Source of the DNA: Amphiscolops sp. MND2022
Lineage: Eukaryota
Reading direction: 5' to 3'
Assembly (NCBI GenBank): GCA_964187785.1
Contig: OZ076409.1
Location: 20,152,001-20,216,000 of the forward strand
DNA length: 64,000 nucleotides
The translations under genes were made by a program, and so were the position numbers. Shown in pieces: positions 4,814-45,760 of this stretch. The first letter of the stretch is position 1, and each line of letters starts with the position of its first letter. The notes beneath the pieces are model-generated. The model saw nothing but the letters and a program-made list of their open reading frames with translations, ran no database searches and had not been told where the DNA came from.

Positions 4814-4837
4814 CTTGGCAACCAATAAAAAAGTTTT

Positions 4838-19154: not shown

Positions 19155-19839
19155 CGTCAGGTAACAGAATGTTTGCGCATTGACACTTTTTGCAGAAACT
19201 AATAAAACTATTAAACCAACGTACCGGTCAAGCCTGGCCAGCGAAAATGCATCTGAAGTAGTGCAAAAGGTCTCCCCTCTCATTTTTTTCAACGTAACAG
19301 AAAACCGAACGAGACTAAAGGGTCCCAAATATTTTAATATGTTGCAACAGAACGGATGTTACAAAATCTCAAAGATTCCTCCTTGTACATTTTTTGGAAC
19401 TATGAGACTGTTCAAAATTCTCATTTTATGTCTCATTTTACGTTTTCTCAAAATATGTCCAGAATTTTTTTTCAATACTATCCGAATTTTGAGGGGGAGG
19501 TTCGATATTTCAACGTTATATCCGAAGGATATTGCTTTTTACTAAGGAGGAAGCGGAGGCTCGAACACAAGCGCTATCATTTGTCCCAGCACGCTATATG
19601 CGAACGTTTAACGTTATATCCGTAGTAGTTTGCGTTTTACTGAGGAGGAGCCGTAAGATCAAATAAGCGTTGGTATTTGTCTCAGGACGCTTTTGAAGCG
19701 TTTTTCGAGCACGAAAGGCGCCCTTTTGGTGTTTCGAAGTTTTATGTGAATATTTCATAAACGTCCTGAGCAAACTGTCAAAGCTTTGCACTTCCTGAGC
19801 CTTAGTTATAGCGCCGACTTTTGACGTTCCCGTCTTGTT
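19096..19839 (+). mobile_element. HINE family 1 copy
   Basis: tttttagtcggcgc start; gcgccgacttttgacgttcccgtcttgtt end. Confidence 0.7.
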
Positions 19840-21372: not shown

Positions 21373-22077
21373 AATTTTCTCCCATAACAGGAAATTAACG
21401 TCTATTAGAATAGTTTTTGGGCTCTTTTTCCTTTTCCCCACACTTTTTAAAGAAGAAAACAAACTCAACATAAAGGATTATATTTGACTATATCATTCAA
21501 AATTTCTTCAAATTAGTCTTACTTTGTTTTGTTGTCTCCACATGAACTCACACAAGTAACTGTCAACCATACTTCTTCAATTCATTTTTGAGAGTCAAAA
21601 TAAAGCCGGAAGTGAATTAAACAAATTTTTCAAAAAATTTGTCAATATTCAAAAGAGACTATTTTTTAAATTAAATGAACTGTTTCATTGGAAACTCAAT
21701 TGAGATATAATTAATTGCAACAAGCCGGAAACGGCATACATCGGCGCCATATCTAAAGCTCAGAAATAGCAAAAGGACTTCAAACTGTCGAGTATTCCTT
21801 ACTTTACAAGTATTCTTTACAAGTATTCAGTACCTGAAAAACCCAAGAAGTTTGACCGAATTTGGACCCGGTGGGCTAAAAGGGGGATCCTTTTGGATTT
21901 TTAACATCCCACGTTGCAAAACATCTAAAAGTTGAAGGGGGCCCTTTAATGATACATTTTTTTTCAAAAAAAGTCTCACAAAGCCGAAAAAACTGAAAGG
22001 GGAGAACATTTGACTTTTCAACATCCATTCTATCACAGAACATTGAAGGGGGACCATTTGGAATTTTTTCGAAAAAA

Positions 22078-22803
22078 TGTAACGTCCGGCTAGCGGTGCA
22101 CATCTAGGAAGAGGGACAATGCCTAGGATGCTTAAACAGGAGACCGTTGTCTTACTACATACCTAGACACTAGTTTTTGGTCACAAAATGGTCTCCTAGG
22201 GGGACCTTTCTCATCGTCCAAAGAGGCTTCTCTAGTTAGAGCTCCGAAGCGACGCGCCGGCACTCTCAAAGTCCGGACACTCCCCACAAGCCTGTAAAAA
22301 CGTATCCTAAGGTTTCTAGCACGTTCCTACGACTTCCTACATACTTCCAAGGTCCAAAAAAGGGTCTATCTGAAATACATTGTATTTGGTAAATAAGTTC
22401 TAAAATACAGACCTAGTAGGTCTAGCATCACCCAAAACCTTGACAAATGATAACAAAATACGGGGACAAGCCCCAACAACATTACATTACAGTTTAGGAT
22501 GCTTCATCTACTCGGCCTCTGGCGTCGTTCTTCACTTTCGGGTGTCTTCTCGGAGAGATGGCACAACATTCCGATTGGGTTGATCTTTTCTTCTGCTGAA
22601 TTCTCCTTCTTCTCCATCTCATTCTTCTTTCTTATTTTTTGATATTTTCTCACGTGCTTTCTTTTTTGCTCTAGTTTCGCGCTCTTTTTTCTCTCGTTCA
22701 CGTCTTGGTACCTGCTAGGTCGGCCATTTTGAATGTGCTGTTTTGATATCGCACATTTCGAAATTTTCATCGAAATTTTGTCATGCCGTTGGATGACGTT
22801 ACA
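22078..22803 (-). repeat. 3' LTR (726 bp)
   Basis: Matches 40348-41070 with roughly 27 substitutions and 2 small indels by eye (about 96%); 9 bp terminal inverted repeat. Confidence 0.97.
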
Positions 22804-22811
22804 TCCTCCCC
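22804..22811 (-). other. Polypurine tract
   Basis: Minus strand reads GGGGAGGA immediately before the TGT of the 3' LTR. Confidence 0.8.
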
Positions 22812-23371
22812 GGGCCGTAGTTTGTCGTCCTCGGCAAACGAGAGGGTTATCATACCCAGAGGGTAACTGCGATGAGTATCGGCTAGACACTCAGACAAAA
22901 CCCTTTTGTTTTCATTTCTCCCCTTTTTTTGTTTCCTAGTTTTTCTCTTATTTCTTCCTTTCGCACTAGCTTTGACAGGCTTTAATAAGTTTAGGAGTAC
23001 TAGATAACATTACAAGTATGACAGTTGATTTTAAGATTCTATTTGCAGTCTGGGCTAAAAAAAAATTTTTAAAAAAAGTGCTCTTGCACTGCATGAGTAA
23101 CAACACTTGGATCTTGGTAGCAACAGTGAATTACCAGGTTTGAGGGGGTGGACATTGTTTCAGGGCCCAGTAACGCAATGACGATTACAAAAATTTAAGC
23201 GAGTACTTTTCAAAATATAATGTATACAGTGAATATCGCTTGAGGATGCAATGTATATAGCACCAACTGAAAGTAAATGACAAGAGGCCATTCAAACAAT
23301 ACAATGTCTTCATGTTTTGAAAGTAACTGGAATGTTTTTCAGTCTAGTTTCTATTTGGTTAGCTAGCTTCT

Positions 23372-26300
23372 TTATTCGTTATCTTGATTAGGCTGTGGGT
23401 CAGGGATGGATGACGTGTTTGCTGTTTCTGGGTTGGCAGAAGCATCCGCCACCAAGGGAGGATATTGAACAGAGTCATCTATGGTTAGCAGATTGTTTAA
23501 CTCGGATTCAATGTCGGCTGCGTCCATTTGCGATATTCCTGCCTCGGGTTCGTCTTGGGCAGGAGCTGCCCCATCCGATAGAATGAAGTTGTCGTCAGTC
23601 ATTGGCTCATCGTTGGGATCGACGATAACAGATGAAACTTCTTGATCTTCTTCAATTCGTGTTTCAGCTCTGTTCGAGGGTAGTATGACTGTTGATAACT
23701 GTTGTGAACTGCCAGTGGCAGTCGCACTTGTTGTAGCGTTTTGGTCAATAGTATTTCCCTGTGGGAAGTCAGGTAGGCTAATGGCTAATTCTGGGTGACC
23801 ATATTGCACGAATTGACTCTTGGAGATTTGGATTGCACGTGCATAATCTTCGCCAACCGATTGTTCTTGCTGTTTTCGTCTGCTGTGCAGATTTAAGAAT
23901 ATCTCCAACGCAGCGCGCGGATTGCTAGGGACCTCTGTACTGATTGGCAAGGTCTTTTTGTTCGGTTCTCTACCCATCAAGGCTATTTTGGCTTTCATGC
24001 GCAAGGATGTTTGGTGGACAGCCAACTCCACCAATTTTGGTTTTGACCAGCACGTTGTTGCGTCCAGGATCCGAGCTGGGTTACACGAGTGCTGGTTCGA
24101 TTGCAGTACATTCTCGATGTGTCCCAGACATAGGGGTATCGCAACCCGGTGGGTTCTTCACCTCGTTTTCTGCCGCCCAGTCTCTGGACTATTGTGGCTA
24201 GAACTCTCAGGACTACTTCTGCATTCCAGTTTGCGAAAGAGTCTGCGGCGCCTGTCTCTGGATTTAGGGGAATGTGTAGCCATGCAATTGGGTGGAACTC
24301 CATGGGCATTGAGAGGGCGCATCGTGCACGTGCTCGAATAATCGATGCGAAGTTGTGTTCTACTTGTTTCTTGTCTTTAATGATTGTGTAGGCCAAGGGT
24401 GGTCGTAGAGAGGCAAAACTGCTGACTGCTCTTTGGTAGGTAGGACCCCGCTGGGATCCATCTGATATCACAAAGAGTAGAATAGACAAGGTAGGGGCAT
24501 TTGCTGCTACTCGCAGGACCTGCGTCGGTTATTGCAACGCCATAACTGCACCGAAGATTGGCCAAAGTATGGGGGGATTAGGGATATCAGGTCTTCCGTT
24601 TCTACCAGCATGAGTGTGGCCATCTGCGAGGGGATCAAGAAACCTGGGAGGTGGTTGGGTTCTCTGTTGATAGCAGGGTTCTCATCCAGAGGATGCAATA
24701 TTCCTGCAACGTTGACCCAGGTGGAGTAGATCCACGCGAGGAGGGCCTCGATGTTGTGTTCCAGTTGCTTTTTAACTGTAAGGGACCCGCTGGGTCCAGG
24801 GTGTATAAGATTGCTTGTAGCCAATTCTTTTGGTTCTGGGCATACACTAAGAAACTGAAGAAGGATAAGATTCCTCTGTCAAATACGAGTTTTTGGAGAA
24901 GGCCAGAATGTCCTTTGTACACTGTGTGTAGCCCGACTGCCATCAAATATCCCAAGACTTCGCTTATTGTGGCTCCTTGCATAGCTTCCATATATAAGCG
25001 TGTCTGTTGGTCGTCCACGTAATACTCTGCATGTACGAAACTGAGAAGCCAGAACGGGATAATGTTATATAGGAGCACCGGGACTTGATTTAAAGTATCC
25101 GCATCGCAGAGCGACTTGATTTAAAGTTTCGCGCAAGGCTTGGTGCCATGTTTGGTAGGTATGCCTGGGTTCCGTCTCGTTTTGCTTTGCCAGGTTCCGT
25201 GCCATCACTATTAGAAGTGTCTGTGTGGGAGGTATCATTCCGGGTTGCGCGTCTGTTGATCTAGCAGCTATTGGAAACACTGTGGTGTTTATTCTCTCCA
25301 TTTTGATTGTTGCCGTCACCTTGAACAGTGCTAGTAGCTCTTTGTGAAATTTTGGGTCATGTCGTCTAGAGTGGATTCGTCCCTACGTTCGTACCATAAA
25401 TTATCCACGAGGTGTTTGAGCTCTTGTTCATTAGGATCGTTCACCTGACGCACACCATTTCCGTCTAAAGATCTGGACGACATTTGCATCCCATAGTCAT
25501 ACGCTGTCGCCTCGTCCACTAGAAGTTGCGAATTTCCTCTATATCCAGTGTATCCTTGTACGGCCTTGGATACTTCTGCTAAGAAAGCGGGGTAAGAGGC
25601 TTCACAGGGGCGCCATGTTTTCACATTGATTCTGTGGTTTGGCGCTACAGTATAAAAATGCAAGTCCCTTGCATAAGAAGCTTCTAGTACCAGATACAAG
25701 AATTGTTGTTATGCTCTTCGGAGATATATGTACCCAGGGGGTGACACAAACACGGTATCTGTATTTGGCTTTTTGTTTCTCATCCTGGTGGCGACGTTAG
25801 ACATCGTTTCCACAAAGGCTACTACTTCGTCAGTTACGGAACCTTCTGTGAGCCGGGTGTGTTGTATATCAAAATACCTCAATGTTCCTCGCAAGGCGAG
25901 GTGGCCAATCACGTTTGAGTATACCAAGATTGGAGGCAAGGGTATTGTTTCTGCCGCCGCTGGCGTGAATATTTTGTCAGTGACTTCTGCCATCTCGCTG
26001 AGCGAAGTACAGGGCATATTCATCAATCTGACATCCATTAAGGTGTTATTTGCGTTGTACGAGGATTTGATTGTCGAGTCGACGAAGAGTGCAATCGTTG
26101 TTTTCTGTAGCAGATCTTTTCCCATTGGCAGTAGAGTAATTGGGTCTCTAGCGTAAATTCTAGTTTGGAGTTGGTTTTCTCCGAATCTACCAGGCCTTTG
26201 ACGGGTAAGCCGCTCGTTAATGGTTTGTAGCGGTTGGAGGTAAGAAGACTCATCTCTCTGTAAATCCCTTCCGAGACGTTCAAACCATGGCGGGGTTCCA

Positions 26301-27521
26301 TCATTTGTGAATATCGGTTTTTTAACTGGCCTTGTGTATAGCACTCCAATGTTCGCCTTCTCTATAGTGCGTTGTTTTGCATAATCTCCTTTACTGGTTG
26401 CATTCTCGAATTTCTGCCTTGGGGATTCTCTTCATTAGATGTTTTCGGAACCTCTCGTTGGAGAAGCACTACGTCTCTTGCAGCTATGTCTAATTGTTGT
26501 ATTTCTGTTGCGGTGAGCAATTCTTTCGTCACCTTTTGTCTCCTAGCTTCTGGTTGACTAGGAGAAGGGGCTGGAGTTGCCCTGTTTTCTCTTGAACTCG
26601 ATTGGTCGCCTTGTTCCCTGGCTCTCTTTCCGGCATTGAGTTTATCTCGAAGGTCCATGGGGGCATTGGTGGTTTTATTTTCTGTCCGTTGTTGCTCCTG
26701 CTGACGTTCTTTCAACTTGGGGTCTTTCTAGAAGCCTATCAGGCGACTAGGTTCATATCTTGGAGGTTCGTTTCTAGATGAGGATGACGTCAACTCTTCG
26801 TATGAGTCTTTGAAGGTGACTGTTCTCTGCCTTAATGATTTTCTCTTGTCTGTACTCCTGTCGTGGTTTGTTCAATTTCTGTTGGACTCACTTGCACCCC
26901 ATCCCTCAAAAAGGCAATAAGGAGCATGAAGTTAGTTGATGAGTGTGTGAGTGAGTGCACGCTTTCAGATGCCAGGGGCATGGGTGGTGTCAAAATGGGG
27001 GAGGAACTAAGGGCAGGGTGCAGTTGAAAGTTGTATGTTGTATCGGCGGAGGAGGAGCCACAGGCTGCGAAAGGGAGGTTGTGGTGCATAGAAAAGTTGT
27101 TGTATGGTAGGCAGGGATATTCTAAAGAACGTTCTTGGTCCATGAGAGGCCTGGTAGGCTCTCCGTAAATCATGTGGGAGCGTGGATCGATTAGCTTATG
27201 GTACAGGTCGTAGCCTTGCCAAGCTCCATCGCGAAAGGTGGCGGAACGCTCAAGCGGCCCTATGCTACTGGTGATGGTCAGTAAAACCTCTGGGTGTGCT
27301 GCTTGCGCTTGCATCTGGGCTATGATCATGGCAAAGCCAGCGATCATTGTGGGGGTGGCCCCATCTTGTAGCGCTTGTTGGACTAAGGCAAGCTGGTCGA
27401 TTCGACCATTGACTTCGCCAACAGATGTGGGGGTGCTGGTAGTTAAGGAATTGGCAGCACGTTGTCGTTGGTTTTGTTGACTGGTAGGTGCGGGCATACG
27501 ATTGCGTGAGGAAGCATCCAT
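23372..27521 (-). pseudogene. ORF3, ~1380 aa when reassembled; SGNH/GDSL-like domain and acidic disordered tail; not env-like
   Basis: Chain of abutting minus-strand ORFs: 26832..27644 (ATG 27521), 26362..26715, 25709..26344, 25331..25699, 25065..25319, 24635..25078, 24507..24824, 23995..24489, 23372..24034. Confidence 0.8.
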
Positions 27522-27854
27522 TGATGATGGGTCGGATAGCGCTGGCGGGTGATACAACGAAATAGATGAAGCAAGGTGATGGTGAAATATAGGATGGCTG
27601 CGCAAGGGCGAAGCAACAGGACAAAACTGAAAAGCAAGTTTCAAATGAACATAAAAGGAAAGATCTTGAACAGACTGAAAACAGATGGGACAAACACAGG
27701 GTTATAAAATTGGAAAGGACAGTGCTTAGGATTAAAAGGTCTTTAGTATGATACTTTATCGTTAAAAGGGGTAGAGTTCGTTCTGTCATAAAAAAAATTA
27801 TATCTAAAACAGTGGTGGTGAATGAAAAGTGGGAAGTCCACTGGCCTTACAGTT

Positions 27855-30800
27855 TCAGGGATTGTCCGTGGTCCTTACATAGGATGAAGTTACCGATGCA
27901 ATGGAAACGTAAACGCGGTCGTGGAGAATTATTTCAAGGTTATGACCCGTGAAGTGGTCGCGGAGCGTGGCGTACCATTTTGATAATAGGTTTATTGATC
28001 TTTCTGGGTCATAGATTGGCAAGTAAAATCGCGTGACGCGACGTTGGTGGAGTTGATGTAGGAGATGCGTGAGGCATGCGTGTAGGGTTTCATGCAGGAG
28101 CGAATGTTTATTTGAGGCTCTGGTACACAGGAAAAAAATTTGATTGTTCCAGGGTGCAGTAGGCGCGAGCTGTCTAGGCGTACGGCTGTGCCGACTGATG
28201 GCTTTAGGCGGAATATGTTTTCTTGCCCATATTCGCGAATGACATAGCGATCTGTTGCAGAGTAAGAAAATAAGACTACGGTGCCTGGGGCCTGTAGGAT
28301 ATCTGTGTTGGAATAAGTTATCCAGGGCAGGTAGCTTGGTCTGGTTTTTGGTTGCGTTATGAGCCTTTTCCCTGCAGCATCGTCGTTGATGTCGATTGAG
28401 TGGGGTGTCAAATGTTCGCTCGACGTTCTTCCTTTACCGTGTGACGTAAGGGGCGGTCGCCCATGTTGATGCATGACCAGTCGTGTATTATGGAGAGGGC
28501 TTCGAGGGAGTGTATGGCGCTTCCGGTGTGTATGTTAATCGATCTAAGATGTGGATCTTGGCTTGTCGGCAGAAGGTGATAGCTATCAGTTGTAAGCAAT
28601 GTTGACTCAAAAACTTTCCGCGGTAGATGTCGGCAAGGTGGAATCAGAGAGTGTCATCTACGTCTACGAGGGTGCGCAAGTTTTCTAGACATATCAATAG
28701 CGTGGTTGGGGAGACTAGGGAGGAGTGATCGAGGGAAGTGACCAAGAGCCACCAGCCGTGGGTAGGTAGGTTGGTAGACGTCACCCGGGGGGAGACCACC
28801 TGATACTTCTCCCATAATTTGTGCGCAGTGATGCAGCGAAGCATCTCTGCATTGGTGCATGCTTTATCCACTTCTCCAAAAGTAATCGAGGGTGGTAACG
28901 GGAGAATAATCGCGGTTAGAGTAAATTCCAGTCCACTATGCTGATTAGAAGTCCATTCTTTAAAGCGGTAAGTAGAGCAGTCGGAGGGGAAGAGTCCTGC
29001 ATTGCTTTTAACGTGGATTCTATAGGTGGTACTACACCGGATTCTGTACTGGTATAGGTCTTTTCCACGGTCACGATGATGTGGGGTACAAAAGGTGAGG
29101 GTTCGTGTTCTTGACGCTGGGCTCGCACGGCTAGGATCCCATATTGCGGGTGTTCAGGTGTGCGTGTCGGAGCGAATTCACAAGCTGGGATGAGCGCTCC
29201 CCGGGCCAATCGAAGACTTGGGGGCTCGATGAGGATTTGGCGTACTCAAGTACAGTTACAGGAACCGCAGGTTCCACATTTATATCGTGGTGCTCGATTT
29301 GCTCGTAGCTGGTATCGTGGTGTCCGTGTTGAAACATTTCCGTGTGGACCGGATTGAGTAGATGAGGGGCTCTCAAGGATCTCATGCAATGTCATTGCTC
29401 TATCGTGAGTTCCAGGTTGGGCTCTAGTAGAGAATCTCGTTCTGGGTCCTTTTCTGGGCCGCAGTGGTGGCTTCCGAGAAGATGTTGTGCTTCTACTAGA
29501 GGAAGTGGTGCGCTGGTTTCCGCGACCAGGGGGTCTACCTCGTGGTCTTCCTGGTGCGCTTACATTTTTTGGTTGGGCTGGGAGTGAGGATGTTTCAGGG
29601 TTCTGACTATCCTGCTCGGCATTGGTCCTTGTGGCTGCTCTTCTTGTGCTAAGGGCCTTGACTCACTCGGGTTGAAGAGGGGGATGTTGCTTAGGGTGTC
29701 TGTAAGCGATGGGTTGGATAATAATGGAGCTGATGTCCCTGAGGGTGATGGTATCAAAGTTTCGGTGAGCATCTCTAGTTGAACTTCTTCTTGATCGGAG
29801 AATAGGGTCTCCAAGTCGTCGAGTTCTGGGGATACCACCTGAGGAGTTGGGTCTGGGATTGGCGGTTCTGTTATTGCTGGCTCCGAGTCGGAGTCAGATG
29901 GGTAATCGAAGTGACTGAATCTTCTTCGTGGGATTCCCTGTTCGAGAGCAGTCTGTGTGCGGGTTTGGATAGTCCGCGAGGGAACCGGTCTGGTTGGTTT
30001 CAATTCGAAAGATGCCTTTGGGAGCTGTTCCGGTACAAATGAATCTCGGGAGACGTCTGAGGTGATTTCTTCATTAGATTCCTCCACATGTGGATCGGCT
30101 ATTATGGCTACGTTCTGGTCTGGTCCGAGTGGTTGGTGTGTGGCCCAGTCCCAAGGGGCGGGTACGTGTTTTTTTCAGTATTCCATAATTGACCTTTTGG
30201 CCAGTACCAAATACGTAGAGACGTCCGTCTTGTAATACATCGGTTACTTTGTGGGGTCGGCGCCATGCGCGAATCAGTTTACGGGTGCCACCCTTGGGGA
30301 TTATGTGGCAGAAAACCCAAACAGCGTCGCCAACGGCATGTGCTTTTGCCTTGAGGTGGCAGTCAAACTTCAATTTTTGCCTGAGCTGGGCTTGGTGGGT
30401 ATTTCTTCGAACTAACTCATGAATTTCTTGTTGACTTGCCAGCGGGTGTTCCACGAATTCCTCTTAGAGTTGAATCCTCGTGCTGCGAATTCTGGGTATA
30501 TGAATTACAATGGAATGGATTTTTTGCGCCATGTTGGAGCATGTATGGCGAGAATCCTGTTGTGGCTTGCCTGGTCAAATTATAGGCACCCAACACTCTG
30601 TCAATATGTTCAACCCAGTCTTGCATTCTGCGTGACGTGTAGACTCTAAGTAAGGTAAGCAAGGTTCTGTTCTGGCGTTCGACGAGTCCATTACCCCTGG
30701 GATGTGCGGGCGTGGATGTCACTTTGGTGACTTGTGATGCCTTCATTATTTCTTGAGCTATTTCAGCAGTGAAATTTGTCGCATTGTCTGATTGCATTCG

Positions 30801-33800
30801 TGCCGGGGTGTCATGCCTGGCAAACCATTTGTTGAGGATGATCTTCGCCGTGGTTTGCGCGTCATATTCGTCGTGGGCGCATGGGATGGCTTCTGCGAGT
30901 TTAGTGAAGTGATCAAATAAGACTAGCAGTCCAGTGTTGCCCGAATCGGTCTTACAAAGCTTCAGGTGGTCGAATTGCACCAGATCGTTGAAATTGCTAC
31001 TGTTTATGTTTTGCAAAAGATAGCAAAGGTTTCTCGCTGGGTGTTTAGCCTGCTGACATGTCAAGCATTGTTTGATGTGATTTACAACATCTCTTTTGAT
31101 CCCCGGCCAGGTGTGTCGCTCTTGTATTCTTGCTAACACTTTTCCCACGCCTTGATGTCCGGATTCGTCGTGTACTCGATATGGGATCTCGTGTTGGAAG
31201 AGTTGTGGCATGACGATCATACATGGGCGCACGTGCAGTGCACATTGTTGTGGGACGTAATTGACACAGAGTATGTCGTCAGAATTCAAGAAAAGTAGTT
31301 TTTTTCTGGTTATAGTAACGTTTCGCGAAGTCTTGCACCTCATCAGGGAACACTGGGTCTTCTAAGGGTTCATTTTTGATAAACTTTTTCAATGCTAGGA
31401 GGTGCATATCTCTGTTCTGAGCCAGGTGCAGATCTTTCAGACCATATTTGGTCAGGTGGTGTTCGTGGAGTTCTGTTCCAATGGTCCTGAGGACGTCTGC
31501 TTGTATTTGACACTCGATGGGTAATTCGCTCAAGGTTGGGTCAGTGACATCTATTCGTGCTGGAGGCACTCTGGTTGTGATGCTCAAAATGCAGTTTGGT
31601 CTTTTGTCTTCTTCAAGGGTTGGCGTGGTTTCCCATTGGATTTGAGGATACCAAGGAGTATCTCCGGGTTGTTCTTCTATGGTTTTGCTTTTCCTTTTCT
31701 TTTTTAAGATATACAATAGGTGTAGGCGTGCGTTTTAAGATCACAATAGGGGTGTTCCGGTGGAAGGTCAGGGTGATATGGGATGATACGACCATGCTTA
31801 TCAAAGTATGGTACGGTGGGAAGGTCATTGTAGTCTTTTTGTGACATGAAATTAAACCCTTCGCTCACTTCTGGCAGTTTTTCGAGGATTCGTTCGCGAT
31901 GAATGTAATCATTGGTTCTTTTACTGAGTCCGTCAACGTTTCGGTGTTGTGAGCGGGGTCGGTGGACTGTTTTGAAATGATACTGGTCTAGGCGCGTGAT
32001 CCATCGACCGATCATGGTTTGATCCATTCAATAGGTTTTTAACCATGATACTGCTTGATTGTCCACGCGGAGCGTGAATTCTCGTCCGGCTAAGTATGAA
32101 TGGAACTATTCGACGAAGTAGAAAACCGCGTACATCTCCAACTTCGGAGCTCCATAGTTCTGCTGGGTTCTTGTTAGTGATTTGCTGCCATAGACCATGG
32201 GCCTCAGGATGGTTTTTCCATTGTGTTCTTGCTCTTGATGTAGGGTGCCCGCTATTGCAACAGTGCTCTCGTCTGTGTCTAGCACAAAACTTCCTTGCTC
32301 GTTTGGTGCGGCTAAAGTGGTTGCATCTGCTAGGGCTCGCTTCACCGAGTCAAAGGCTTCTTGGTGCTTATTTTCCCAGTAGAAGTGTTGGTTTTTCTTT
32401 AACAACTCTTGACTGGGTTGCACTTTGGCTGCACGGAAAGGGACGAAGTCGCGGTAATAGTTGGCAAATCCTAAGAAGCTTTGCAGTTCCTCCTTGTTTC
32501 TGGTGGTAACCATTCCTGGATTTCGACTACTGCTTCTGGGTCCGGCTTGATTCCCTCGGCTGATACCACTCGTCCCAGGTACTTTGTTTCCGTACGCATG
32601 AAAACGCAATTCTCTGCTCGCATTTTAAAACCTGCTTCTCTAAGACATTCAAATATTTCTTTGATTCTCGCGATGTGGTCTTCGATTGTTTCAGTTGCGA
32701 TTACAATGTCGTCGATGTAGGCCATGAAGACACTTCCATGTCTTTGCTGAATTTTTTGGAGGGCTCTAGTAATGGATCGTTGGAAGGTAGCTGATGCATT
32801 GCAGAGCCCAAAGGGCATGCGTCGCTATTCAAATAGACCCAGTTCGCAAGCAAATGCAGTCTTCCTTCTGCCGCATTTCTTTAGTGGTAGTTGCCAAAAG
32901 GCCCACGCCAAATTGATGCTCGTAAAGATTTTTGCGTTGCCTATTCTTGACAGACTCTCGTCTATTCTTGGCAGGGGGAAGGCGTCTTTTACGGTCACTT
33001 CGTTTAGCGGTCGAAAGTCACAACAGAAGCGAAGTTCGCCCGTCTTTTCCTTCACCATGACTATTCCACTCGCCCATGGCGAGTAGGAAGGTTGGATTAG
33101 GCCTAGGGCTAGTAAGTTTCTCGCTTCTTGATTAGCTTTGGCAGCTTTGTCGGGAGACATGCGCCAGGCGCCTTGTCTGTGGGGAATGGCCTCTGGCTCT
33201 AGTTCGATGCGGTGTTTGGCTATTGTGCACTTTTCTATGTCAGCTTTATGTTTCATGAACAGATCATCATATTCATTCAAACCTTTTGCAAGTTGGACCC
33301 TTGCACCCTCCCCCCAAAAAGAAAAGAAAGAACAGAGGAGAGATCTGGACCTGGGATGGGTTTTAACAATTGCGGATCAGTTCTTGCATGCTTCTCCTTC
33401 TCGGCTAGGCTTTCTTCTGATATGTCAGTGGAGGATAAAAAGTTTTGGGCAAAGGAGCAAAATTCAGTACTTGTGTCACTCAAGTCCACAACATTAATAT
33501 TATTAACATGTTCTACAGAAGTTACTGAAGTTTCATCAGTTTGGTCGACCAGAATTGGTTTGAACACAAAGGTTGTTGGCTCTGCCTTACCCAGGACAGT
33601 TTTGTTTTGGAGTGTCAAGTTTTCGTTGGCTGTCCGGTTTCTTACGGCTAGGAAAACCATGCCGTCTTCTCCTACCGTTGTCAGGGTGTTTTCTGAAACA
33701 AATGAGCACTTATTGTGCACCCCGCTGGGGCGTATCATTACGTTGCGGAAAAGGTATTCGTTGGTGTCCTGAGAGATTACTTGGGCTTTGAATAGTTTGA

Positions 33801-34718
33801 GTTCAAAGGGGCCTAGTACTACTTTTTCGGTGGAAACAACTAGGGAAGGTTTATGGTTACTAACCTCATGGATGGGTTTGAAATGGCGAGGAGTTTTTGG
33901 GTCTCGAATGGTGACTCTCATTGCAGTTAGGTCGTCGAGGACGTTATAGGTGCGCAAAAAGTTGCGGCCTAGCAAGAAGTGTTCTGCTCCCAAGTGATCT
34001 GCGATGACGATGAAGTTTGTTTTCAGCGTGTGACCACCTAATTGGAAGTTTACGTTTTCGGCTATACCGATGGTGTTAATGGTTTGCCATTGGCTGCAAA
34101 CAGTTGGACATCGTATGGTAGAAGGCTCAAGGTGTGGGCGGAGGCGATTTTTTGGTATGCGGCAAGTGAGAGGATGGAGACTCCTGAACCTGTGTCGATC
34201 ATGCCAAACAGCGGGATGGGTTCTTGCAAGGTGGTGCCAAAGGCAACTACCAGCGAAGCCCTTTCGTCTATCCTAGCTTCCCCCTGTGGGTCTTGGACGC
34301 TGATTATGTAGCATCGCAGTTCTTGGCGGCCTATGTATAGTCCCTGGGGGAAGTGTCCTTGTATTACTACTATTGCGTCGAATTTTATGTCTACGCCATC
34401 TACACTGAAAGCCACTGGGACTGGAGAAACTGTCTTCACCTTTTGGATGGGTGCCAATTTGGTTTCGTCTTCTCTGGCGAAGTGCGGTAATGGTCGAGCG
34501 GCGATTGTGTATTTGGTATTTCTGCATAGCTCTTCCTTAAGCTGGGCCAATGTCAATTCGGGGCGTAATTTTTGTTCAGCCGAGAGGAGCAGATGAATCG
34601 AAATGAGGGTCTCGGTGCAGTTCGGGGCGGGTGCGTCCAGCGTGGTGAGCACCTGTTTTTCGCCACAAGTGACAACAATGGGTCGTGTTGGGCCTCCGGC
34701 TTCAGCTACTGAAATCAC
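27855..34718 (-). pseudogene. pol: pol: tandem protease, dUTPase-like spacer, RT, RNase H, integrase, long C-terminal extension with macrodomain; frameshifted
   Basis: IDTGSG and LLGRNFL (PR); SPWASGIV, DFRPLN, MPFGLCNA, YIDD (RT); LDTD/LEMYAV (RH); HDESGH..CLTC, FDH, SDNA, NGLVER (IN); WRRPHKV (GPY/F-like). Coding-like fragments continue to a TGA at 27855. Confidence 0.93.
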
Positions 34719-34788
34719 TCGGACTTGGTCGTCTGGTGGCGAATTATCAAAATTGGCTGGTTTGAGGGGTATACCATGCTGCCCTTAT

Positions 34789-37632
34789 TTAATCTTCTTG
34801 CTTGGGGTTTTCTGGGGCCATACATTCGGATGCTGAGTGTTCGGTGCAGCCACAAATGACGCAGAAGGCTACAGTTCCCTGGGTTGGTAGTGACGCAGGA
34901 TAAACTTCATTTTTAATTCCGTGTGGTTGGGATGGGCAGGTCCACCCTCCGTATGGGTTTGTGTGGCAAGAGTTGACTTGTTGTTGTACCGGTTTTCTTG
35001 CGCGATCCCTTAGTGGGCAGTCTATTACAAAGTGTGATGGATCACCACAGTTGAAACACGCTCTTTGAGGTTGTTGCCTATATGGTGCAGGTTGTTGGAG
35101 CGGAAGTTGTTGGACGGGTTGTTGAGCAAGTTGTGCAGGAGGGGGAACTGCCAAAGGCAATTTTGGTTGTTGTGGCTGCTGAGGGGCCATTTGATAGTTT
35201 TCTAGGAGGCGCCACGCATGCGCAGGTATTGTTGAACAGTGAACCGAAGCGCTTCCACCGTTGGAGGAGCTTCTACGTATTGTTCTGGAGCATACATTAA
35301 CGCGAGATTTCGTTTTAATTCAAAGTTGCGTACTCCTTCTCTGAATCTTTGCGTCATTTCGTATCGTCGAACGGTTACTTCTTCGTTCAGGTAACCTTGG
35401 CTACGTAGGCCTTCGAGGGCGTCTAGATACTGCATATAGTCCTCTTCACTGTTTTGGTTTCTGGTTCTGAATTGTTGTTGGATATGGATCTTGCTTGACC
35501 CTGTTCCGAATCGGCGTGCCAGCAAGGCGAAGACTTTCTCGTCAGTATCTTTCTCTGCCTCGGACTTGTTAGTGATGTAATCTCTGACTTCGTGCTCAAG
35601 GTATTCGATTATTGTCGAGGCTTTATCGAGGGGGGTTGCCCTAGCGTGCGCTTTTTCCAGATGGCGTTTCATTAACATCATCCATCCGTCGGTGTTGCCA
35701 ACTTTCGTTCCTCGATACTTCGCTGGTTTGTTTTTTGATTCCTTGGCTGCCAGTGGTGGTTCGAGGCCCTTTGACCTCGCGGTTGATATGACTTCTGCCA
35801 AGGCTTGCCGTTGATTTGTCCTGGGGGTATCGGGGGTTGGATTCGAAGCATCTGGGGTTTCTCCCGTTTCGCTTGGATCTTGCTCCAACGTTCGTTTAGT
35901 CGTAAGTTTGCGCTGTGTGCTAGTAGCCACCGGCCGCGGGACCAAATCTATGTATGCTTGCTTCGGCTGGTTGGTGCTTGCTGCGGTCCGTGCAGTGTCG
36001 TAGTTCGACTCTCTCGTGGTCATTCCGCTCGCAGGTGAATAATAGTCTCCTGTCGTTGATGCACCGTTGGCATAGGGATCAAAGGAGATGCTAGATAGTG
36101 GATTCGTGCCAACGTCGCGGGACTCAGCCTGGAGGATTCTCGCCATTTTGCTGGTTTTTGGGGGATCTCTCTTGTATGTTGGGGGCGGTATTAGCTTTAA
36201 TGGTTCTGTTTGCTCTACGCTAGGTAGTGCTACTTTCCGATGGGTGGCTTGCAGTGGGGGCGGCACGGCACTAGTTGAAGGTAGGTTGCTGGGAAGGGAT
36301 GCGATCTGCGCCGCTGGCGCTGCTTTCGCTTGTGAAGCGTCTGTTTGAGATGCCATTGCTCTCACTCCTAACGTCAGATCTTTCATTGTGGTCATCAAAT
36401 CTATCATACGGGCGTCTGCGTCGGTTTCCCTGCGCTGCAGTAAGTCAGTCATCAGTTTCAGGCCTTCTTCAGCTTGACGATCTCTTTCTTTCATTACGAC
36501 GGACATTTCGGCCATGCGAGTGTCGGCTTGGTTTTCCCGTTGTTTGATTAGATTGTTCAGAGAAGCCATTGATTCTTCAAGTCTTCCTTGGTTTTGGCGT
36601 CCTTCCGCTTGTATTTCCAGGAGTCCTTTTATCATTTCGTCCAAGTCCCCCATGATGGCGTCGGCGCTCATCGCATGTTCGCCATTTTCTCTCGCCAATC
36701 GTGAATGCACTTTGGAAAGTTGGGCCAGACTGGTTCGGAAGTATTCTCTGACTGCCTGTGACTCTTTTCGTATCTTTGTGACAGTGGAATCTGGGGCTGT
36801 CTCTGAACTTGTTTTGGAACTAGGCGTGTAGGTGGGTCGTTCAGTATTTGTTAGACCAAAGCTCGAGCTCCTTGGTGGGGGCGTTTTAAAGACGTACCGC
36901 AGTGGGTTAGTTTCAATTTGTGTGGACGGGTTTTCAATTTGGTTGTTGGATGCCCTGGATGGTCCTACCTGTTGAGTGTAGGCGCTTGAAAAGGGGTTTC
37001 GATCTGCACTATCAGGGTGGGTCCCTGTGAATTGATGGGGTTCGGGGAGCCGCCAGTGGAGTGGCTAAATCGCTATTTTGCGATGTGGTTTCCTCTGCGG
37101 TGCTCATTTTACATGATGGCTTTTCATTTGAGTTTGGCCATTCCCTTAAACTATAGTCAGTGACTTCTAGAACGGGCCACGTATTGCTTTGCGTGGGGTT
37201 TTCAGCACTATCTAGCAGATTGGCGCTATTGGGGGAAGCTGGCGACGAATTGGGCTGTTCGGCAGCAGCTGTTTTTTCTGCAATCTGCTCTGAGTTGGAA
37301 ACGTAGTCTGACATGAGTTCTGAAAACATTTCTGTGATGGTGGATTCAAGAAGATTGTCGGTGAGGGTTTCACACCTAATGTTGGTTTCCATTTCTTTCC
37401 GAATGGATTCGTGGCATGGAAGTTTCCAAGGCTATTTCTATCCATCTTCGCTGATTCCGTGGCTTGCGAGATTATTGCGATTAAATTTGTTGGTTTGGTT
37501 CGTGGCGTGGTTACCTACGCTATCCTTCCCCTTGGAAATGGAAGTAAGTTGATTCGGTGGAAGGTTTACCGATCGAATGATTGATTCGATTACGGGAATG
37601 AGTGGGTCTGAACGGTGACGTTTCGCTTCCAC
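34789..37632 (-). pseudogene. gag: gag: long N-terminal extension, coiled coil, capsid-like region, two CCHC zinc knuckles; frameshifted
   Basis: ORFs 37438..37632, 37012..37392, 35202..36710 (RFG...QQFRTRNQNSEEDYMQYLDAL, MHR-like) and 34789..35190 (CFNCGDPSHFVIDC; CVICGCTEHSASEC). Confidence 0.9.
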
Positions 37633-40314
37633 GGGTGTTATCTTTCTCTGAGATTATAGTCAACTAAGGAAACGGTAATGTTGCTATTAACTCAAATAAC
37701 TAATGCTATGCTACCTACTAAGGTTAACAGAAAGTTTTGGTTTCTCTTTTTGCAAGTTGAAGAGAGTACGATTTGAATGAACAAAAAAAAATTTTTTGTG
37801 TGTATACTGGGGTGGGGGTTCACAGATGATTGTAGATAGGATGTTTACTAGGGGAGCTATGGGTGAAATGACGGAATCGCAATGGGAGTTTTGGATGGTT
37901 GGTTAATTCGGCGGTGAGTTGAAAGTGTCTCAGCGCAGTGCGCTTATTGGTTTCTGTGAGACTCAGCTTTCTCGCTACGTTTTCCTAATTGATGTATTCG
38001 AGTGTCATGGGCTAAACAAAATGGAGGTTGATTTTGGGGGTGTGTATGGAGATAGGCACTGAGTTTGGTGGAATGGTGGGTACCGTAATGGTAGTGTTAC
38101 GCCAACAAACGCTCACTTTTTTATAGACGCGATTACTGGTTTGCTAGTTTTCCATCTCACTAAGTGCCTTGCGGGGAGTCCTTGATTTTGGAAACGCTTG
38201 GAAGGTGGTATTATCGATTCAACGGGATGCGTTGGGGACGCTATCTGCGGTAGTTGGGTATTTGTGTTCTTTGTAGGCTTGTTTTAGGGTATGAAACTCG
38301 CAATTTTTTACTCGATTTTTGGGAAATCGATGAATTTTGTGTCAAATAGCACGCTTGGGAGGGGTGAAAATTGCTTCCAGCGCTAGTAGCGACTTGAAAA
38401 TTTCACATCATAAATTATGCCAGTTGAATCGTGGGGAATTGGTCACCGATTGCGCAGAAATTGATTCAGTGGGTGTTACGGTCACTTTACAACAATTTTC
38501 AAAAATTTGACTATGTCGTGAAATTCACAAAAATGTCAAACTCGCCTTCTAGGCGTTCGCGCTACCTGAAATTTGCATGCGAGGGTAACCTTTGCCCACG
38601 TAACGGAAAAACACGGCTGGGAGGCGTCTGGATCAACATTCGGCGATCCGAGGTGACAAAACCTTGATGTACCAGAGGGACCACTTTTTTGGCTCAAAAT
38701 TCACAAAAATGTCAATTTCTCAGCTTTGGTTAGTAGCCGGCTGCTCAAATTGCACGAATCGTCGGGATTTAATGCCATGCGTACGAAAAGGCAAGAATTC
38801 TAGTGCTGGGATACCTGCAAGGTATTGTACTATGCTCAACTAAAATTCAAAATTTTTTGACAATTTCGTACACTTTCTGAGCAAAACTGCGGCTAAGTTT
38901 TCTCGATCACCAGTAATGCTTGCGGAACGAAATCTCTCTGGAACATTTCATTAGAAGAGAGACTCTCTCATCCCTCATCTCTCCAATTTCTCTCTCATCC
39001 CTCTGGAAACGCTACACCAATGTCTTGGGATTTTCACCGAAGTGACACGTTTTTGGCTATTTCTCGGCAACCACTGGTTGGAATCACTCGCAGTTTTCTG
39101 CGTTTGCAACGTTTTACTTGGTATTGACAGAAAATAGGCAATCTAAACCTAGTAGGTTCCAAATAAGGTCTTCAAAATTTTTATTTAAGTTATATTTTTT
39201 ACCATCTCGGGACTGTACAGAAAATGTTCGTTTTCGCTGAGAACTTTATATTTCTCGGTACTGGATTGTTTCAAGTGGTCTTTTTCAGAAGCGTTCAGGT
39301 GTACTAAAATTTTATTTAGGGGTTTGGGTGGTTTCAATTATTAATTTGATTTCAATAACACTCGGGTCTATGGGTTCCTCTGCTCAGGCCTGTATGTAAT
39401 AAAAGAAAGGGGTTGATAAAGTTTCAATTTATATTGGGGGAAAGCAAAAAACCGTCTTGGTAGTAGTGTTTCAGACTGCCAAGCTCGACAAAAAAATTTT
39501 GGGACTCTGAAAAGGCTTGGGAACTGACGCCCAAGGCTTTGCCCTTGTCAAATTGGGTCGAAATGACCGAATTTGGCGATTTTTCAATAAAATTTACTGT
39601 TTTTCGTTATTTTCGAAAAAGTGGCCCAGCAAAATTTCTTGTTCTAGACCCACTGGGTCTGTTAGAACGTTTCACTAGTATTCCCGCTGGCCGTACTTCG
39701 TTTAACAAAATTTTGGCTTTCAAAATTGAAAATTTCGGGGTTTAAGCCATAAATAGCGTTATTTTCGAGGTTTTCAAGCTCGAATCACTTAACAACTGAT
39801 CGGAACACCCTCTAGGTATTTTCTCAGTTAGTTAGTATGGGGACAAGCCTGGGAATACTCTTTTTGGGCCTTTAAAAGCGATAGGAAAGAATTAACCTAG
39901 CTGTACTTGTAGATTCGGCCACTGCAGGGGAGAGTGAGGTGGTGACGTTAAGTACCTGACGTCTTGCACTCAGCAGGTTGGGGCGTTCACGAATTGTCCT
40001 CTCGGTCCCTGAACATTGCCAATTAGCTGAAAATAAGCTGGAAAACCCTTTAAAACACGTTCCGGATAGGCTGGAATTGCTTTTCTGTTAGGTACAAGTA
40101 AAGATAAAGGCGGTGCACCGTTAGAAACTGTTAATTTCTCATTGTAGACATCAGAAACATGCGGAAAACGTAGAAACAACATTAGTACAGAGCCCAGAGG
40201 GCTAGAAAAAGGCTATGAAAAATTCTAGGACCCTCCCTTTAGTTCTTCCTAGATCCGGACCTAACAGGGCCGGAAAGCAGAAATTGCTCCTACTTGTACG
40301 CAAAATGAAAAATA

Positions 40315-40331
40315 TCCCTCTGTGGTCGCCA
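40315..40331 (-). other. Primer-binding site, tRNA-Arg-like
   Basis: Minus strand TGGCGACCACAGAGGGA resembles the complement of the animal tRNA-Arg(TCG) 3' end (...TCCCnnnGTGGTCG-CCA); it lies 16 nt inside the LTR edge. Confidence 0.7.
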
Positions 40332-40347
40332 TAAAAACTATTCCAGA

Positions 40348-41070
40348 TGTAACGTCCGGCTAGCGGTGCACATCTAGGAAGAGGGTCAATGCCTAGGATG
40401 CTTAAACAGGAGACCGTTGTCTTACTACATACCTAGACACTAGTTTTTGGTCCCAAAATGGTCTCCTAGGGGGACTTTTCTATCGTCTAAGGAGGCTTCT
40501 CTAGTTAGAGCTCCGAAGCGACGCGCCGGCACTCTGAAAGTCCGGACACGCCCCACAAGCATGTAAAAACGTATCCTAAGGTTTCTGGCTAGTTCCTACG
40601 ACTTCCTACATACTTCCGAGGTCCAAAAAGGTGTCTATCTGAAATACATTGTATTTGATGGATAAGTTCTAAAATACAGACCTAGTAGGTCTAGCATCAC
40701 CCAAATACTTGACAAATGATAACAAAATACGGGGATAAGCCCCAACAACATTACATTACAGTTTAGGATGCTTCATCTACTCGGCCTCTGGCGTCGTTCT
40801 TCACTTTCGGGTGTCTTCTCGGAGAGATGGCACAACATTCCGATTGGGTTGATCTTTTCTTCTGCTGAATTCTCCTTCTTCTCCATCTCATTCTTCTTTC
40901 TTTTTTTGATATTCTCTCACTTGCTTTCTTTTTTGCTCTACTTTCGCGCTCTTTTTTCTCTCGTTCACGTCTTGGTACCTGCTAGGTCGGCCATTTTGAA
41001 TGTGCTGTTTTGATATCGCACATTTCGAAATTTTCATCGAAGATTTGTCATGCCGGTGGCTGACGTTACA
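40348..41070 (-). repeat. 5' LTR (723 bp)
   Basis: Direct repeat of 22078-22803; TG...CA termini. Confidence 0.97.
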
Positions 41071-43289
41071 AAAAGTCTCACAATGCCGAAAAAATCTGAA
41101 AGGGGGGACCCTTTAGTCTCCTGGTATTGTGTTACGCTGAAAAACATGAAAAACCTTTTTGGTTCAGTTCGCTAAGCCAAATGTTTTAATTTGGCACCAT
41201 AAAAGTTCGTAGAACTTTTAAGAACTATTTTGGTCAGTTCGTGTGGATTGAAAAAAGGGTTACTATAGTAGTCGCGTTTCACTTCATGAAGCGCCGAATA
41301 AAAACATCATCTTGAAAAGTGTGGGGGAAAAGGAAAAAGTACCGTTTATTGTTTCAACAAAACATTTTTCACGCATTTTGACTATGTTCGTATTCACTGT
41401 TTGTTGTGACTCAAAACAGGAGGCTGTTGATTTCTTCAAGAAGAATTCGTGACTTCATAAAGAGAAATGTTTTTGCTTCGTAATCAAGTGTTTTTGTTAT
41501 CATATTTTCACGAATTTTCCAAAAGAAATTGTTGTTGGGTGGGACAGAAAAAAGCCCGGCATTTATGTCGTCTGAGTCGTCTGAGTCGTCAGATTGAGAA
41601 ACAAGATTGTTTGCAAATTTCACCTTAGAACTTGCCGAAAGTATCAAAAAATTATACAAAACTTTCAACAAGCGTACGATATAAAGATCGCCGAGAATTC
41701 CGACAGTCCAACTTTTATTTATTGACAAAATTTCTCAATTACAAAGCTGTAAGTTATTTTTTCGACACGACTGTGTGAATTTTTTGGGATTTTTTTTCAT
41801 GTAACAAAAAGTTTTCGTTTTTCTATTCTCAGTTAGAGAAATGTCCTTTTTGAGTCCTTGATATCTTCACTTCGAAAATGAACTGGTACTATGGAAGTTT
41901 GAGAATTGTGTTCCCGATTTCTTACATTGAGGAGGGTTGCCCTAATGGCACGAGATTGCAAGAACGTTTCAACACAGAACTTTTTAGCGCGCCGCTAAAT
42001 GGATGAGAAATTTTCACGGTTTCACATTTTTTGGGGTTTCTTTAGGGCTCCTCAAATTCAATATAATCGAAAGTGGATTCCTCTGGCACAATTTGATAAT
42101 ACCCACACTTTTTTCAAACTGAACCGAAACAACAGAAACTTCTGATATATCGAGCAAAAATCAAGTAATAATTTCTGATATACCTTATATTCATTACTCT
42201 ACATTTCAATGTATACACTAAAGTTTAGATATCTTCCATCCGGTTATGGTGTTCTGACGTAATCCATTTTTTCGGTGTTGACAAGTAATGATCGAATTTG
42301 TTCAAACCGTTTCCTGTTTGAATATGAAGGTCTTCAAAATTATTAGGGGAAAAACAGCGACTCCGGACGAATTTTTAAAAACTTCCTAAGCACTTGTCGA
42401 AACACCATGGCTGCGCTGGTACCCTGGAGCAATTTTGACGGAACCCAACAACCGCCTAACCCAAAGTGACAAGGAAAACACGTACAACATAGTCAACTAG
42501 TTTTATGAATTCATTTCAGTCATGTAACGTTATATTTGTTAGGTCTATTGTTACATTGGAGTTGAGTAAACATTGTTAATAATCCAATATGTCATATTTG
42601 CTAGGGCTCATTCATAAACAGATGACTTGGGTTCATAAAGTATGTCTTCAAGTGAATGAGTTGAACTGAAGTTGTGCAATCTGAATGCCCTTGAGTGACT
42701 TCTGTGTCCTTATACATCGTATTATGATGAAGATAGAGGTTAATATACCTTTTAAAGCCATATGAATGTTCGTCAATTTGCGTTTCTCAGATTAGTGAAT
42801 ATGCATCAAAATGCAGTTCGAAAATTTGTGACCAAAAGTCACTTTGAGCTTTAGCAATAACAAAAGGACGTCATGATACGTCTTTATGGATGACGTATAT
42901 ACCCTTAACGTTCCTTAATGTACTCTTCATGTGTAATCCTTAAGGCTCCATGGTTTTACATGAATTATACTGTTGTTGCGATGTCATGTAGCGGAATTTT
43001 TGCAATCTATGAACAGAATGACAGCAGGTGACGTAATTCTTTTTATTTCTAATAAATGTTTCAAAAACCGAGTGCCATGCAAAAAAAAATTGGAAAAGCG
43101 TGCGCTAAACATAGGATTTCACTTTTTGAAAAACTGTTATACTCAACAAGAACTCTCCACAATCATTTACTCTTGTAAAGAGATAATTGATCACGTGTTA
43201 GTTCTTCATTATCTCAAGTTTTGATATCAATTTAGTCAATCAAAAAATCAAATATTTCTCGCAACAAAGCGGATTTTCAATCGAGCAAA

Positions 43290-43600: not shown

Positions 43601-45760
43601 GCTCCAGAAATGAGCAGTTTGTATGAGTTCACGCCTCAGTTATTGAAAATACGGAATATGAATGTTTTTCGTTAAGGGCCTCAGAAATGAAGAAATAAGA
43701 ATACTGTGATACCTATGCCTCAAAACGTATTCGATGTAGACGGGACTGTAAATATAAACCAGAACCCTGACGAGGATTATCGCAACTCTTCAATGGTAAC
43801 TTCACGGACACTTTGAGTCTGAGATTTTATGCAGACTTTCATTTTCTTGGAAAAACTTCTCAGCTTGTTTGAACAATCAAAGGTTCCCTTTGCGATGATT
43901 GTTGGCCCTATCAATCCAATTAAACCTTTCCAAACATTGACTGAAACTTTCTCATAAACACTATAATAGTCTTTTTTCCTATCAAAATATACCCCTCTAT
44001 TTGCAATTTCTTTATTGAACCTCTGAATTCGTTTGGAATGAACTGCACTGCGTACGGCATAATTAGCGAGTCTGGACATTAATGCGTTGGCCATTTTCGA
44101 ACCGCCCGTTGGCAAAACGCCAATTTCGCAACATTTACCTGATTTTAGTATCGCTTTGTGAAAACAAAACACGCAAGATTGGCATCTCAGAGCTAGATTA
44201 GAGATTTTTACTCGTCAGAACCGGGTCCCAGAGGTAACAGGGATTTCGTAGTCTCGCCTAAAGAAACCACAGGTTTTTAGTAGGAGCACGCTTTTAGCCG
44301 TAGACGACTAAATCTAAAAAACCTCAGGCTTATAGAACTGTTCTTTGAACATACTTGTAATGGAATTTCTTTTGTATTCTGTATCCAAATGGAAAATTAC
44401 CTCATCGGAGTACCTCACAAACCCCAAATTAGCTGCAGAAAGCAATATGAGAATGGAAAAAGGGAATTTCCAGCAAATCAAAAAGTTACTATAACGAATT
44501 CTGAGTTACCGGAAATACTTGAACTACTATGGCAAATCATTTTCCCGAAACATTACATTAACACAGTTTTATCATCTTCTCTACCAACCCAGGTCACCCC
44601 CATGTAATCATTTCAACCGCCAAAACGAATCCAATGTGGAAAGTGAGCGTCTCAAATTTTCAAAACCACTCCTGAAAAATTTGAGTGAAATGGATTAAAA
44701 AACATTGTATACCTTGCATTCTCTAGCTACCTTACATTCTCTAGCTCTCACAACTAGGGACAAGTTTTCTGGTCGAGCTGCGGAATCTTGGGTTTGATGG
44801 ATCCTAGCTCGGTTTCGAGCTAGCTTTACAGCTGGCAGTCGAGCGCAGCATAGTTTCAAGTGATCTCTAAAAATGCTAGTTGTCAGACATTCATTATTAG
44901 TCTGAGATCAGGCCCGAGCACGAAACCTGAACTGGTCTGGGCCTAGACAAGAGATTTCTTGGTCTTTGTCAGGTCTGGTCAGAGATTTTGAACAAAAATT
45001 TTGTCACCTGTGTTTCGTCAGTCAGACATGGGGCCAGATCTGGCGCCTGATTAAGAAACAACTGGGTGGCAACTAGCGCAGCTTCAGTGGTTTTACGTTT
45101 TTTTTGTGGTCGAATCCAATCGGGTCGAAAGGACCAAAAATTCTTCAAAAGTTTACTAAATGTCCAAATCTTTCAACCGATGTCCTTTTTCATTTACTAA
45201 CATATTTATTTGGATTGAAAAACAAATTATTTATATATTGTTTTGTCTATGTGCAAGTTTGATTAGATTCTTTCCTAATTTCACGCTTCAATTTTGTATT
45301 TTTTGGTTAGAAAGAACCCTTTTGAGACCAGAACATTTCCCGTTGAAATTTTTTGTATTGTGCGCAACTTTGCTGAATTTTTTCTTTCTGCCAAAGAACT
45401 GTTTTGTCATTTCAGTTAGAAAAAATTCAAAGGTTCGTTATAGACACTAGATTTTTTGTATTTTTTCTCCAAGACAATCTTCTAGCATAGTTGAAAAAAT
45501 ATAACTTTTTTAAACATTGAAGAAAAAACAAGTTTTTAATGCTTTGGCACTGTGAATTCTTTTCAAACAGTTTTTTTAACACTTTGAAGTACTAGCGTTT
45601 TTCCAGCCTGAAGAGGGGCGCCGACTTATGCCGTCCTCCGTTTGCTTTTACAAGGAGTTTTGTGTTTTTTCTGTTTATCATTGGCATTTTTAGACTGGAA
45701 GTTTTTTCGGAGTGTTTTTGTGGTTTCAACATGCGCAAACAAAACTGAAACGTCTCAAAT

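Follow-up and report, generated by a model that had tools for sequence, protein, structure and literature searches.

The stretch analysed here, called the window below, comprises 64,000 nucleotides of the genome of Amphiscolops sp. MND2022 (contig OZ076409.1, positions 20,152,001 to 20,216,000) and harbors, on its minus strand, a decayed Ty3/Gypsy-type long terminal repeat (LTR) retrotransposon of 19.0 kb. This element is probably a decayed copy of an abundant and recently mobile lineage of 19-kb Ty3/Gypsy-type elements which duplicate 3 bp of target DNA, carry a primer-binding site offset by 15-16 bases and encode extra domains that are likely non-catalytic. An earlier note on this DNA had placed the novelty in the cargo. 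However, giant size, dUTPase-like domains and extra SGNH modules have each been published before, and the strongest oddity, TG...CA termini combined with 3-bp duplications, was overlooked. The end chemistry and the tandem protease with its predicted dead copy are the new parts, whereas each of the cargo parts has a precedent.

Self-comparison of the window copy revealed a 5′ LTR of 723 bp (40348..41070) and a 3′ LTR of 726 bp (22078..22803), both with TG...CA ends and both, like all parts of the element given below except the target duplication, on the minus strand. The pair is 95.9% identical (blastn), with 27 substitutions in 723 aligned bases (Kimura two-parameter distance 0.038). Since no other internal repeat was found by self-comparison and the copy is colinear, end to end, with both open frames of a young relative, it contains no nested element; together with the colinear sister copies described below this rules out nested insertions as the source of the size, as the earlier note had claimed from the paired LTRs 19 kb apart. 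The region sizes given there are right to within about 0.2 kb: 2.9 kb for the leader from LTR to ATG, and about 2.7, 6.9 and 4.15 kb for gag, pol and the last open reading frame (ORF), respectively. The coding regions are broken, and gag-pol and the last ORF align to the young relative as 18 and 7 tblastn segments, respectively, all in order.

Eight other paired-LTR copies, drawn from at least 42 LTR matches among the best candidates in this 1.07-Gb genome, were compared with the window copy. All eight are colinear with it save for deletions and local duplications, at 75-91% identity, and they keep the second-ORF region in 8/8, the tandem protease region in 8/8 and the macrodomain region in 7/8 cases. 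Some sister copies (L017-L019, L009-L011) have internal tandem duplications, namely a 1.3-kb unit of the reverse transcriptase region repeated several times and a 4.5-kb duplication. An integrase search listed at least 150 matches, about 60 of them (hand count) in open frames of more than 3,000 amino acids. Six of these, picked for long frames, belong to family A; they are 18.7-19.1 kb long, their LTRs are 99.7-100% identical, and each has a single gag-pol frame of about 3,220 amino acids and a further frame with about 1,360. Families B and C, with Pol identities of 44-69%, show the same plan in six copies, and the five copies with whole ends measure 18.6-19.1 kb. All extra protein parts are under purifying selection (dN/dS 0.02-0.11). 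The lineage is abundant and recently mobile, and because the sister copies are colinear and the young relatives share one plan, the 19-kb size and the cargo are intrinsic; the extra regions are not later insertions. The separate gag, pol and ORF3 that had been read from the window copy are real as regions, but intact relatives fuse gag and pol, so that ORF3 is the second ORF.

The ends of the element, which are known from copies in this genome, read TG...CA in all 30 LTR loci examined, and also in the copies of families B and C. In all 21 young insertions compared (16 of family A, one of which is a solo LTR, two of B and three of C) the same 3-mer stands on either side, and none of the 21 has a 4-mer in common; when flanks were paired wrongly as a control, 22 of 420 pairs had a common 3-mer. 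Both ends could be read in five of the eight older copies, and the duplication measures 3 bp in all five, the left edge being less certain in one of them. The duplication of 4-6 bp which is typical of Ty3/Gypsy elements (Metaviridae), although not formally defining for them, is therefore absent. In the window copy the duplication is AAA (22075..22077, partner 41071-41073) and lies in an A-run (6 + 4 A). Where the target repeat is uninterrupted in the window, five copies have 7 A and one has 4; the five copies with 7 A set the length of the duplication at 3 bp. A short polypurine tract ending in GA (22804..22811) adjoins the 3′ LTR.

Duplications of 3 bp together with CG...CG ends mark Troyka, other LTR elements being given 4-6 bp in the available part of the description (PMC12440569); Troyka corresponds to the Kuafuorterviruses of 5-6 kb (PMC11673190, available in part). 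It is very improbable that the present lineage is an oversized member or close relative of that group, the only one for which 3-bp duplications have been described. The 3-bp duplication, the single Gag-Pol frame and the order of protease, reverse transcriptase, RNase H and integrase (PR-RT-RH-IN; RP-RT-RH-IN in PMC12440569) are indeed common to both. As far as that partial description goes, however, Troyka elements have LTRs of 100-400 bp, internal regions of 1.6-7.7 kb without an extra ORF, a CX2CX8-10HX4C knuckle and no GPF/Y motif, whereas the elements studied here have TG...CA termini, LTRs of about 710 bp, an internal region of 17.6 kb with a large second ORF, CX2CX4HX4C knuckles with none of the Troyka type, and a GPY/F-type motif. 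In addition, the best solved match of a member of the clade described below is the Gag-Pol protein of Ty3 (E 1.5e-104). Membership in Troyka was rejected on termini, size, knuckle and GPF/Y motif.

The primer-binding site of the window copy (40314..40331) is an 18-nt stretch complementary to the 3′ end plus CCA of the host tRNA-Arg(UCG). A 16-nt spacer (40332..40347), predicted from sequence and folding to pair partially with the U5 part of the LTR, separates it from the LTR end. The same tRNA fits families A and C, and tRNA-Lys(UUU) fits family B, yet the site always lies 15-16 nt from the CA of the LTR despite this switch of tRNA. In retroviral primer sites the tRNA match likewise stops at 18 nt. 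Because the tRNA switches at a constant offset and the match stops at 18 nt, we argue that the offset match is the working primer site, and the offset primer site proposed earlier holds as a genuine 18-nt match to a host tRNA, 15-16 nt inside the LTR end. A primer site at the TGG two bases past the LTR is not supported, since family C lacks this TGG and the offset site fits two host tRNAs; a tRNA matching the spacer was not searched for. Genome-wide, 2,945 junctions of LTR end and primer site have gaps of 14-18 nt versus 2 with gaps of 0-12 nt and 0 in the controls, this being a count of sequence patterns and not of confirmed family members. The genes of both primer tRNAs are numerous (255 matches across the genome for Arg(UCG) and 644 for Lys(UUU)) and occur in large tandem arrays (G000:C9:57.54-57.58 Mb and G000:C7:5.22-5.26 Mb); some tRNA-Arg(UCG) copies read TCA at the anticodon and are called SeC by ARAGORN (L074).

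If priming occurs at the offset site, the spacer must be present at the U5 end of the complementary DNA (cDNA). One junction in the genome bears on this. What separates a pair of near-identical LTRs (711 matches) at G000:C5:22090501-22090531 is 15 of the 16 spacer bases followed by GA, the dinucleotide found just before the 3′ LTR in that family. The junction lies inside an internally deleted three-LTR insertion with an AAC duplication (G000:C5:22084616-22091237; L254, L257-L261), which looks like an integrated two-LTR-circle junction, and its sequence is as expected if integrase trims about 16 nt at one end and 2 at the other (n = 1). Alternatively, reverse transcriptase could skip the spacer through a hairpin or a primer slip, so that the spacer never enters the cDNA end and integrase performs ordinary 2-nt processing. 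We regard this as improbable. A hairpin between U5 and the spacer is predicted in families A and B and in the window copy, and in the same three the spacer opens with TC, the counterpart of the GA at the opposite end; but the spacer of family C begins with TA and pairs differently, thousands of copies have inherited a spacer, and the LTR-LTR junction has kept nearly all of it.

Between the primer site and gag lies a non-coding leader of 2.9 kb (37446..40313). Its first 2 kb are 71-80% identical between families whose synonymous sites are saturated, and U5 plus leader (window 38366-40743) make up about 2.2 kb of non-coding DNA with 80% identity between families and up to 97% locally. Unlike these parts, U3 is not alignable between families. 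Several segments of the leader fold better than column shuffles, without an excess of compensatory changes; the conserved U5 and leader show neither an Rfam match nor clear covariation, and an Rfam search of the element gave 0 matches.

The Gag-Pol core bears out the assignment to Ty3/Gypsy: besides the TG...CA LTRs, the primer site and the polypurine tract, the lineage has the Pol order PR-RT-RH-IN, CX2CX4HX4C knuckles and a GPY/F-type motif. The gag region (34750..37445, broken; Pfam, tblastn map and profiles) consists of a low-complexity N-terminal part, a capsid-like domain (about 35205-35760), for which relatives match PNMA, and two knuckles. It is followed by a protease-like domain without a DTG motif (PR1, 34275..34712, by profile comparison) and an aspartic protease with a DTGS motif that is split by a frameshift in the window copy (PR2, 33903..34262; sequence and tblastn map); the inner coordinates of the gag region and of PR1 are estimates from the tblastn map onto the young relative. 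The region after the protease (33543..33873) is, from its position, presumably dUTPase-like. Reverse transcriptase and RNase H (31980..33208, broken) and integrase with H2C2, core and GPY/F-type motif (30130..31223) were placed by Pfam and the tblastn map; the last motif, identified by eye, reads WRGPHKV in intact relatives. In 28 frames of the window Pfam found pieces of knuckle, RT, RNase H and integrase and recognised none of the extra domains, for which profiles and folds were needed. A dUTPase-like domain after the protease, at the position of 33543..33873, is described for Burro and rotifer elements in the available part of PMC6431247.

The catalytic D(T/S)G motif is missing from 11 of 11 aligned PR1 sequences. 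PR1 matches the protease fold weakly in profile comparison (HHalign 48%, E 2e-4), and its profile also matches the true protease of an element outside the clade (E 0.006). PR1 is predicted to be a catalytically dead protease duplicate upstream of the true protease. Of the tandem protease that had been proposed, the region as such is kept in all eight sister copies; its first part is putatively protease-like and has no catalytic motif.

Pol ends in a TARG1/OARD1-type macrodomain (27910..28327; profiles and predicted structure), so that the macrodomain read earlier from the sequence is supported by its fold as well as by its retention in sister copies. The model superimposes on TARG1/OARD1 (PDB 4J5Q, 4J5R and 4J5S) with TM scores of 0.81-0.83 on the target, root-mean-square deviations of 2.3-2.4 and 17% identity; the fold is common to human TARG1/OARD1 and DarG macrodomains, and distant members of the clade match TARG1 at the sequence level (E 6e-25). 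The glycine-rich loops present in these distant relatives are altered in the lineage studied here, and ADP-ribose hydrolysis by the terminal domain is doubtful because of these changes. A likely first, more degenerate macro-like domain precedes it (28485..28967; HHalign 76% to the terminal domain, alpha/beta in the model).

The second ORF (23372..27521, broken in the window copy, mapped onto intact relatives) encodes about 1,360 amino acids in these relatives, with a disordered N-terminal part, an SGNH fold (about 25550-26134; predicted structure and alignment) and a helical region (about 23800-25394; predicted structure). A T-run and CAG resembling a splice acceptor lie before it (27630..27640, inferred). 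The SGNH fold suggested earlier is present, but the catalytic residues are not all kept: Ser and Asn are conserved, whereas 9 of 9 homologues have Arg in place of the block V His, the blocks being set by alignment and eye. The domain is therefore predicted to be non-catalytic. An env-like or movement protein for cell-to-cell spread, with the SGNH fold engaging membranes, is an unlikely identity for this protein. It occupies the env position in its own frame behind the acceptor-like signal, its second half contains hydrophobic helices, and a membrane role was proposed for GDSL ORFs in the available parts of PMC5408684 and PMC6431247. Against this, the second ORF has 0 Pfam families, its profile and the Pol tail gave 0 matches in a PDB sequence search, residues 740-1270 found nothing at or above 0.9 in the atlas search, its BFVD matches include no fusion-protein fold, the model of the second half is weak (pLDDT mostly below 60) and no signal peptide is evident by eye.

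On this basis the life cycle of an intact element could be as follows. Genomic RNA from the 5′ LTR would be translated into one Gag-Pol polyprotein that is cut by a PR2 dimer, with PR1, which lacks the catalytic Asp, likely serving as a scaffold for maturation or regulating its timing. Linear cDNA primed at the offset site would overshoot the LTR by about 16 bp on the U5 side and by 2 on the U3 side; both ends would then likely be trimmed to CA and joined with a 3-bp stagger by integrase, or by a helper nuclease. The macrodomain or macrodomains likely bind ADP-ribose or tether the integration complex instead of hydrolysing, and the second ORF is likely expressed from a spliced or separately started RNA, its SGNH fold likely serving as a lipid/membrane- or RNA-binding module and not as an esterase. 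Several observations weigh against parts of this scheme and of the lineage's description. For the end-processing model there is a single junction, which has lost its own polypurine tract and could also be the product of a template switch, and 4 of 5 matches to a wider LTR-LTR junction pattern are unrelated DNA. The U5-spacer hairpin folds no better than shuffles (z -0.6 to -1.9). The PR1 fold depends on weak profile matches, with HHalign at 10% when a narrow alignment is used, and the first macro-like domain scores 0% in HHalign against TARG1-like relatives.

A tree of RT-RH sequences (89 sequences, from 134 of 166 that were long enough, after removal of redundancy above 90%; FastTree, midpoint root, no GyDB, Repbase or Troyka references) unites the families found here with unnamed database proteins in a single clade on a long stem (support 1.0); some of these proteins end in TARG1-type domains or superfamily 1 (SF1) helicases, and named animal proteins fall outside. 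Related Pol proteins P0242 and P0245 carry a Upf1-like SF1 helicase at the end, P0249 (outside the clade) a Macro domain between RH and IN, and P0234 a GDSL domain after IN. Ty3 is also the best solved match of the clade profile and shares the PR-RT-RH-IN order; size, cargo and end structure differ, Ty3 having a 5-bp duplication and 2-nt end processing. An IMG/VR scan found no relative. Among the 5 of 158 loci examined from the scans of metagenomes and metagenome-assembled genomes, L096 is the only long locus near the clade; it has no LTR pair, its frames of 1,667, 2,197 and 1,808 amino acids span more than 17 kb, and it contains a PR1-like region (HHalign 72%) and, by eye only, SGNH-like and macro-like regions (HHalign 0.4% and 0.2%).

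Similar cargo and size are known from other Gypsy-type elements, as judged from partly available sources. Vesta and Juno of bdelloid rotifers share the SGNH/GDSL third ORF and a dUTPase domain, but their SGNH residues are intact and their ORFs measure about 1.3 kb (PMC5408684), whereas here His is replaced by Arg inside a 1,360-residue protein with a further helical region of 500 residues. Burro/GYPSM1 of planarians and plant Ogre are likewise giant, with one long polyprotein and accessory ORFs; the Burro cargo comprises BIR, BCL2, MATH, ankyrin and SUMO-like domains and an env between gag and pol, and Ogre owes its size to LTRs of 1.9-6.5 kb (PMC6431247). The accessible text of that paper gives no macro, SGNH or tandem protease part for either of these two elements and does not contain the word 'macro'. 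Conversely, neither intact ORF has a Pfam match to BIR, BCL2, MATH, ankyrin or env at E values up to 1. The available parts of PMC11410931 and PMC4695847 contributed nothing further. In the literature searched, largely without subscription papers and Repbase Reports, we found no TG...CA Gypsy lineage with 3-bp duplications, an offset primer site or such cargo, and no described family with the same domains.

It is about an even call whether these elements represent an undescribed, widespread clade of giant Gypsy-type elements, with 3-bp integration independent of Troyka, lopsided processing of about 16 and 2 nt, a dead duplicated protease as hallmark, and with TARG1-type macrodomains, SGNH folds and SF1 helicases as exchangeable counter-defence cargo at the Pol end and in the second ORF. 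A real but lesser chance is that the lineage already resides in Repbase or Dfam as unnamed Gypsy families, in which case the novelty would shrink to the description of ends and cargo, if that. Near-identical proteins occur in public ENA assemblies, automated repeat libraries would catch so abundant a lineage, and published elements already show an extra SGNH module, a dUTPase-like domain or giant size; but none of the close relatives is named, no matching description was found in the literature searched, and in its available part a 2025 paper by a Repbase curator gives other LTR retrotransposons duplications of 4-6 bp.

The length of a target duplication is set by integrase geometry, and with 3 bp in use as the mark of Troyka, a TG...CA Gypsy-type lineage provides a second case for comparison. 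Long one-sided end processing, if true, would widen the known abilities of LTR integrases and is directly testable with thousands of copies, many of them young. Repeat pipelines whose defaults demand 4-6 bp duplications or a primer site near the LTR would overlook these elements or trim them wrongly, although the elements may make up several percent of the genome (2,945 junctions times 19 kb would be about 5% if all were full length). The conserved enzymes, predicted from their residues to be dead, point to new steps in particle maturation and host counter-defence.

Elsewhere in the window, positions 4835-5149, 11262-11590, 21701-22042, 41070-41304, 51741-52541 and 62618-62799 belong to a dispersed family of repeats that bear subterminal-type motifs in both orientations; one of its copies harbors the element. 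At 55145-61590 a segment of 2.9-3.7 kb is present two to three times, the copies being 97-100% identical, as a recent tandem duplication or an assembly repeat. Arrays of 15 nt, as an inverted, fold-back-like pair, and a 99-nt tandem array are found at 45751-46028 and 18650-19243. Finally, positions 8001-14000 show a strong AT skew (-0.2 to -0.34), which suggests another minus-strand coding element.

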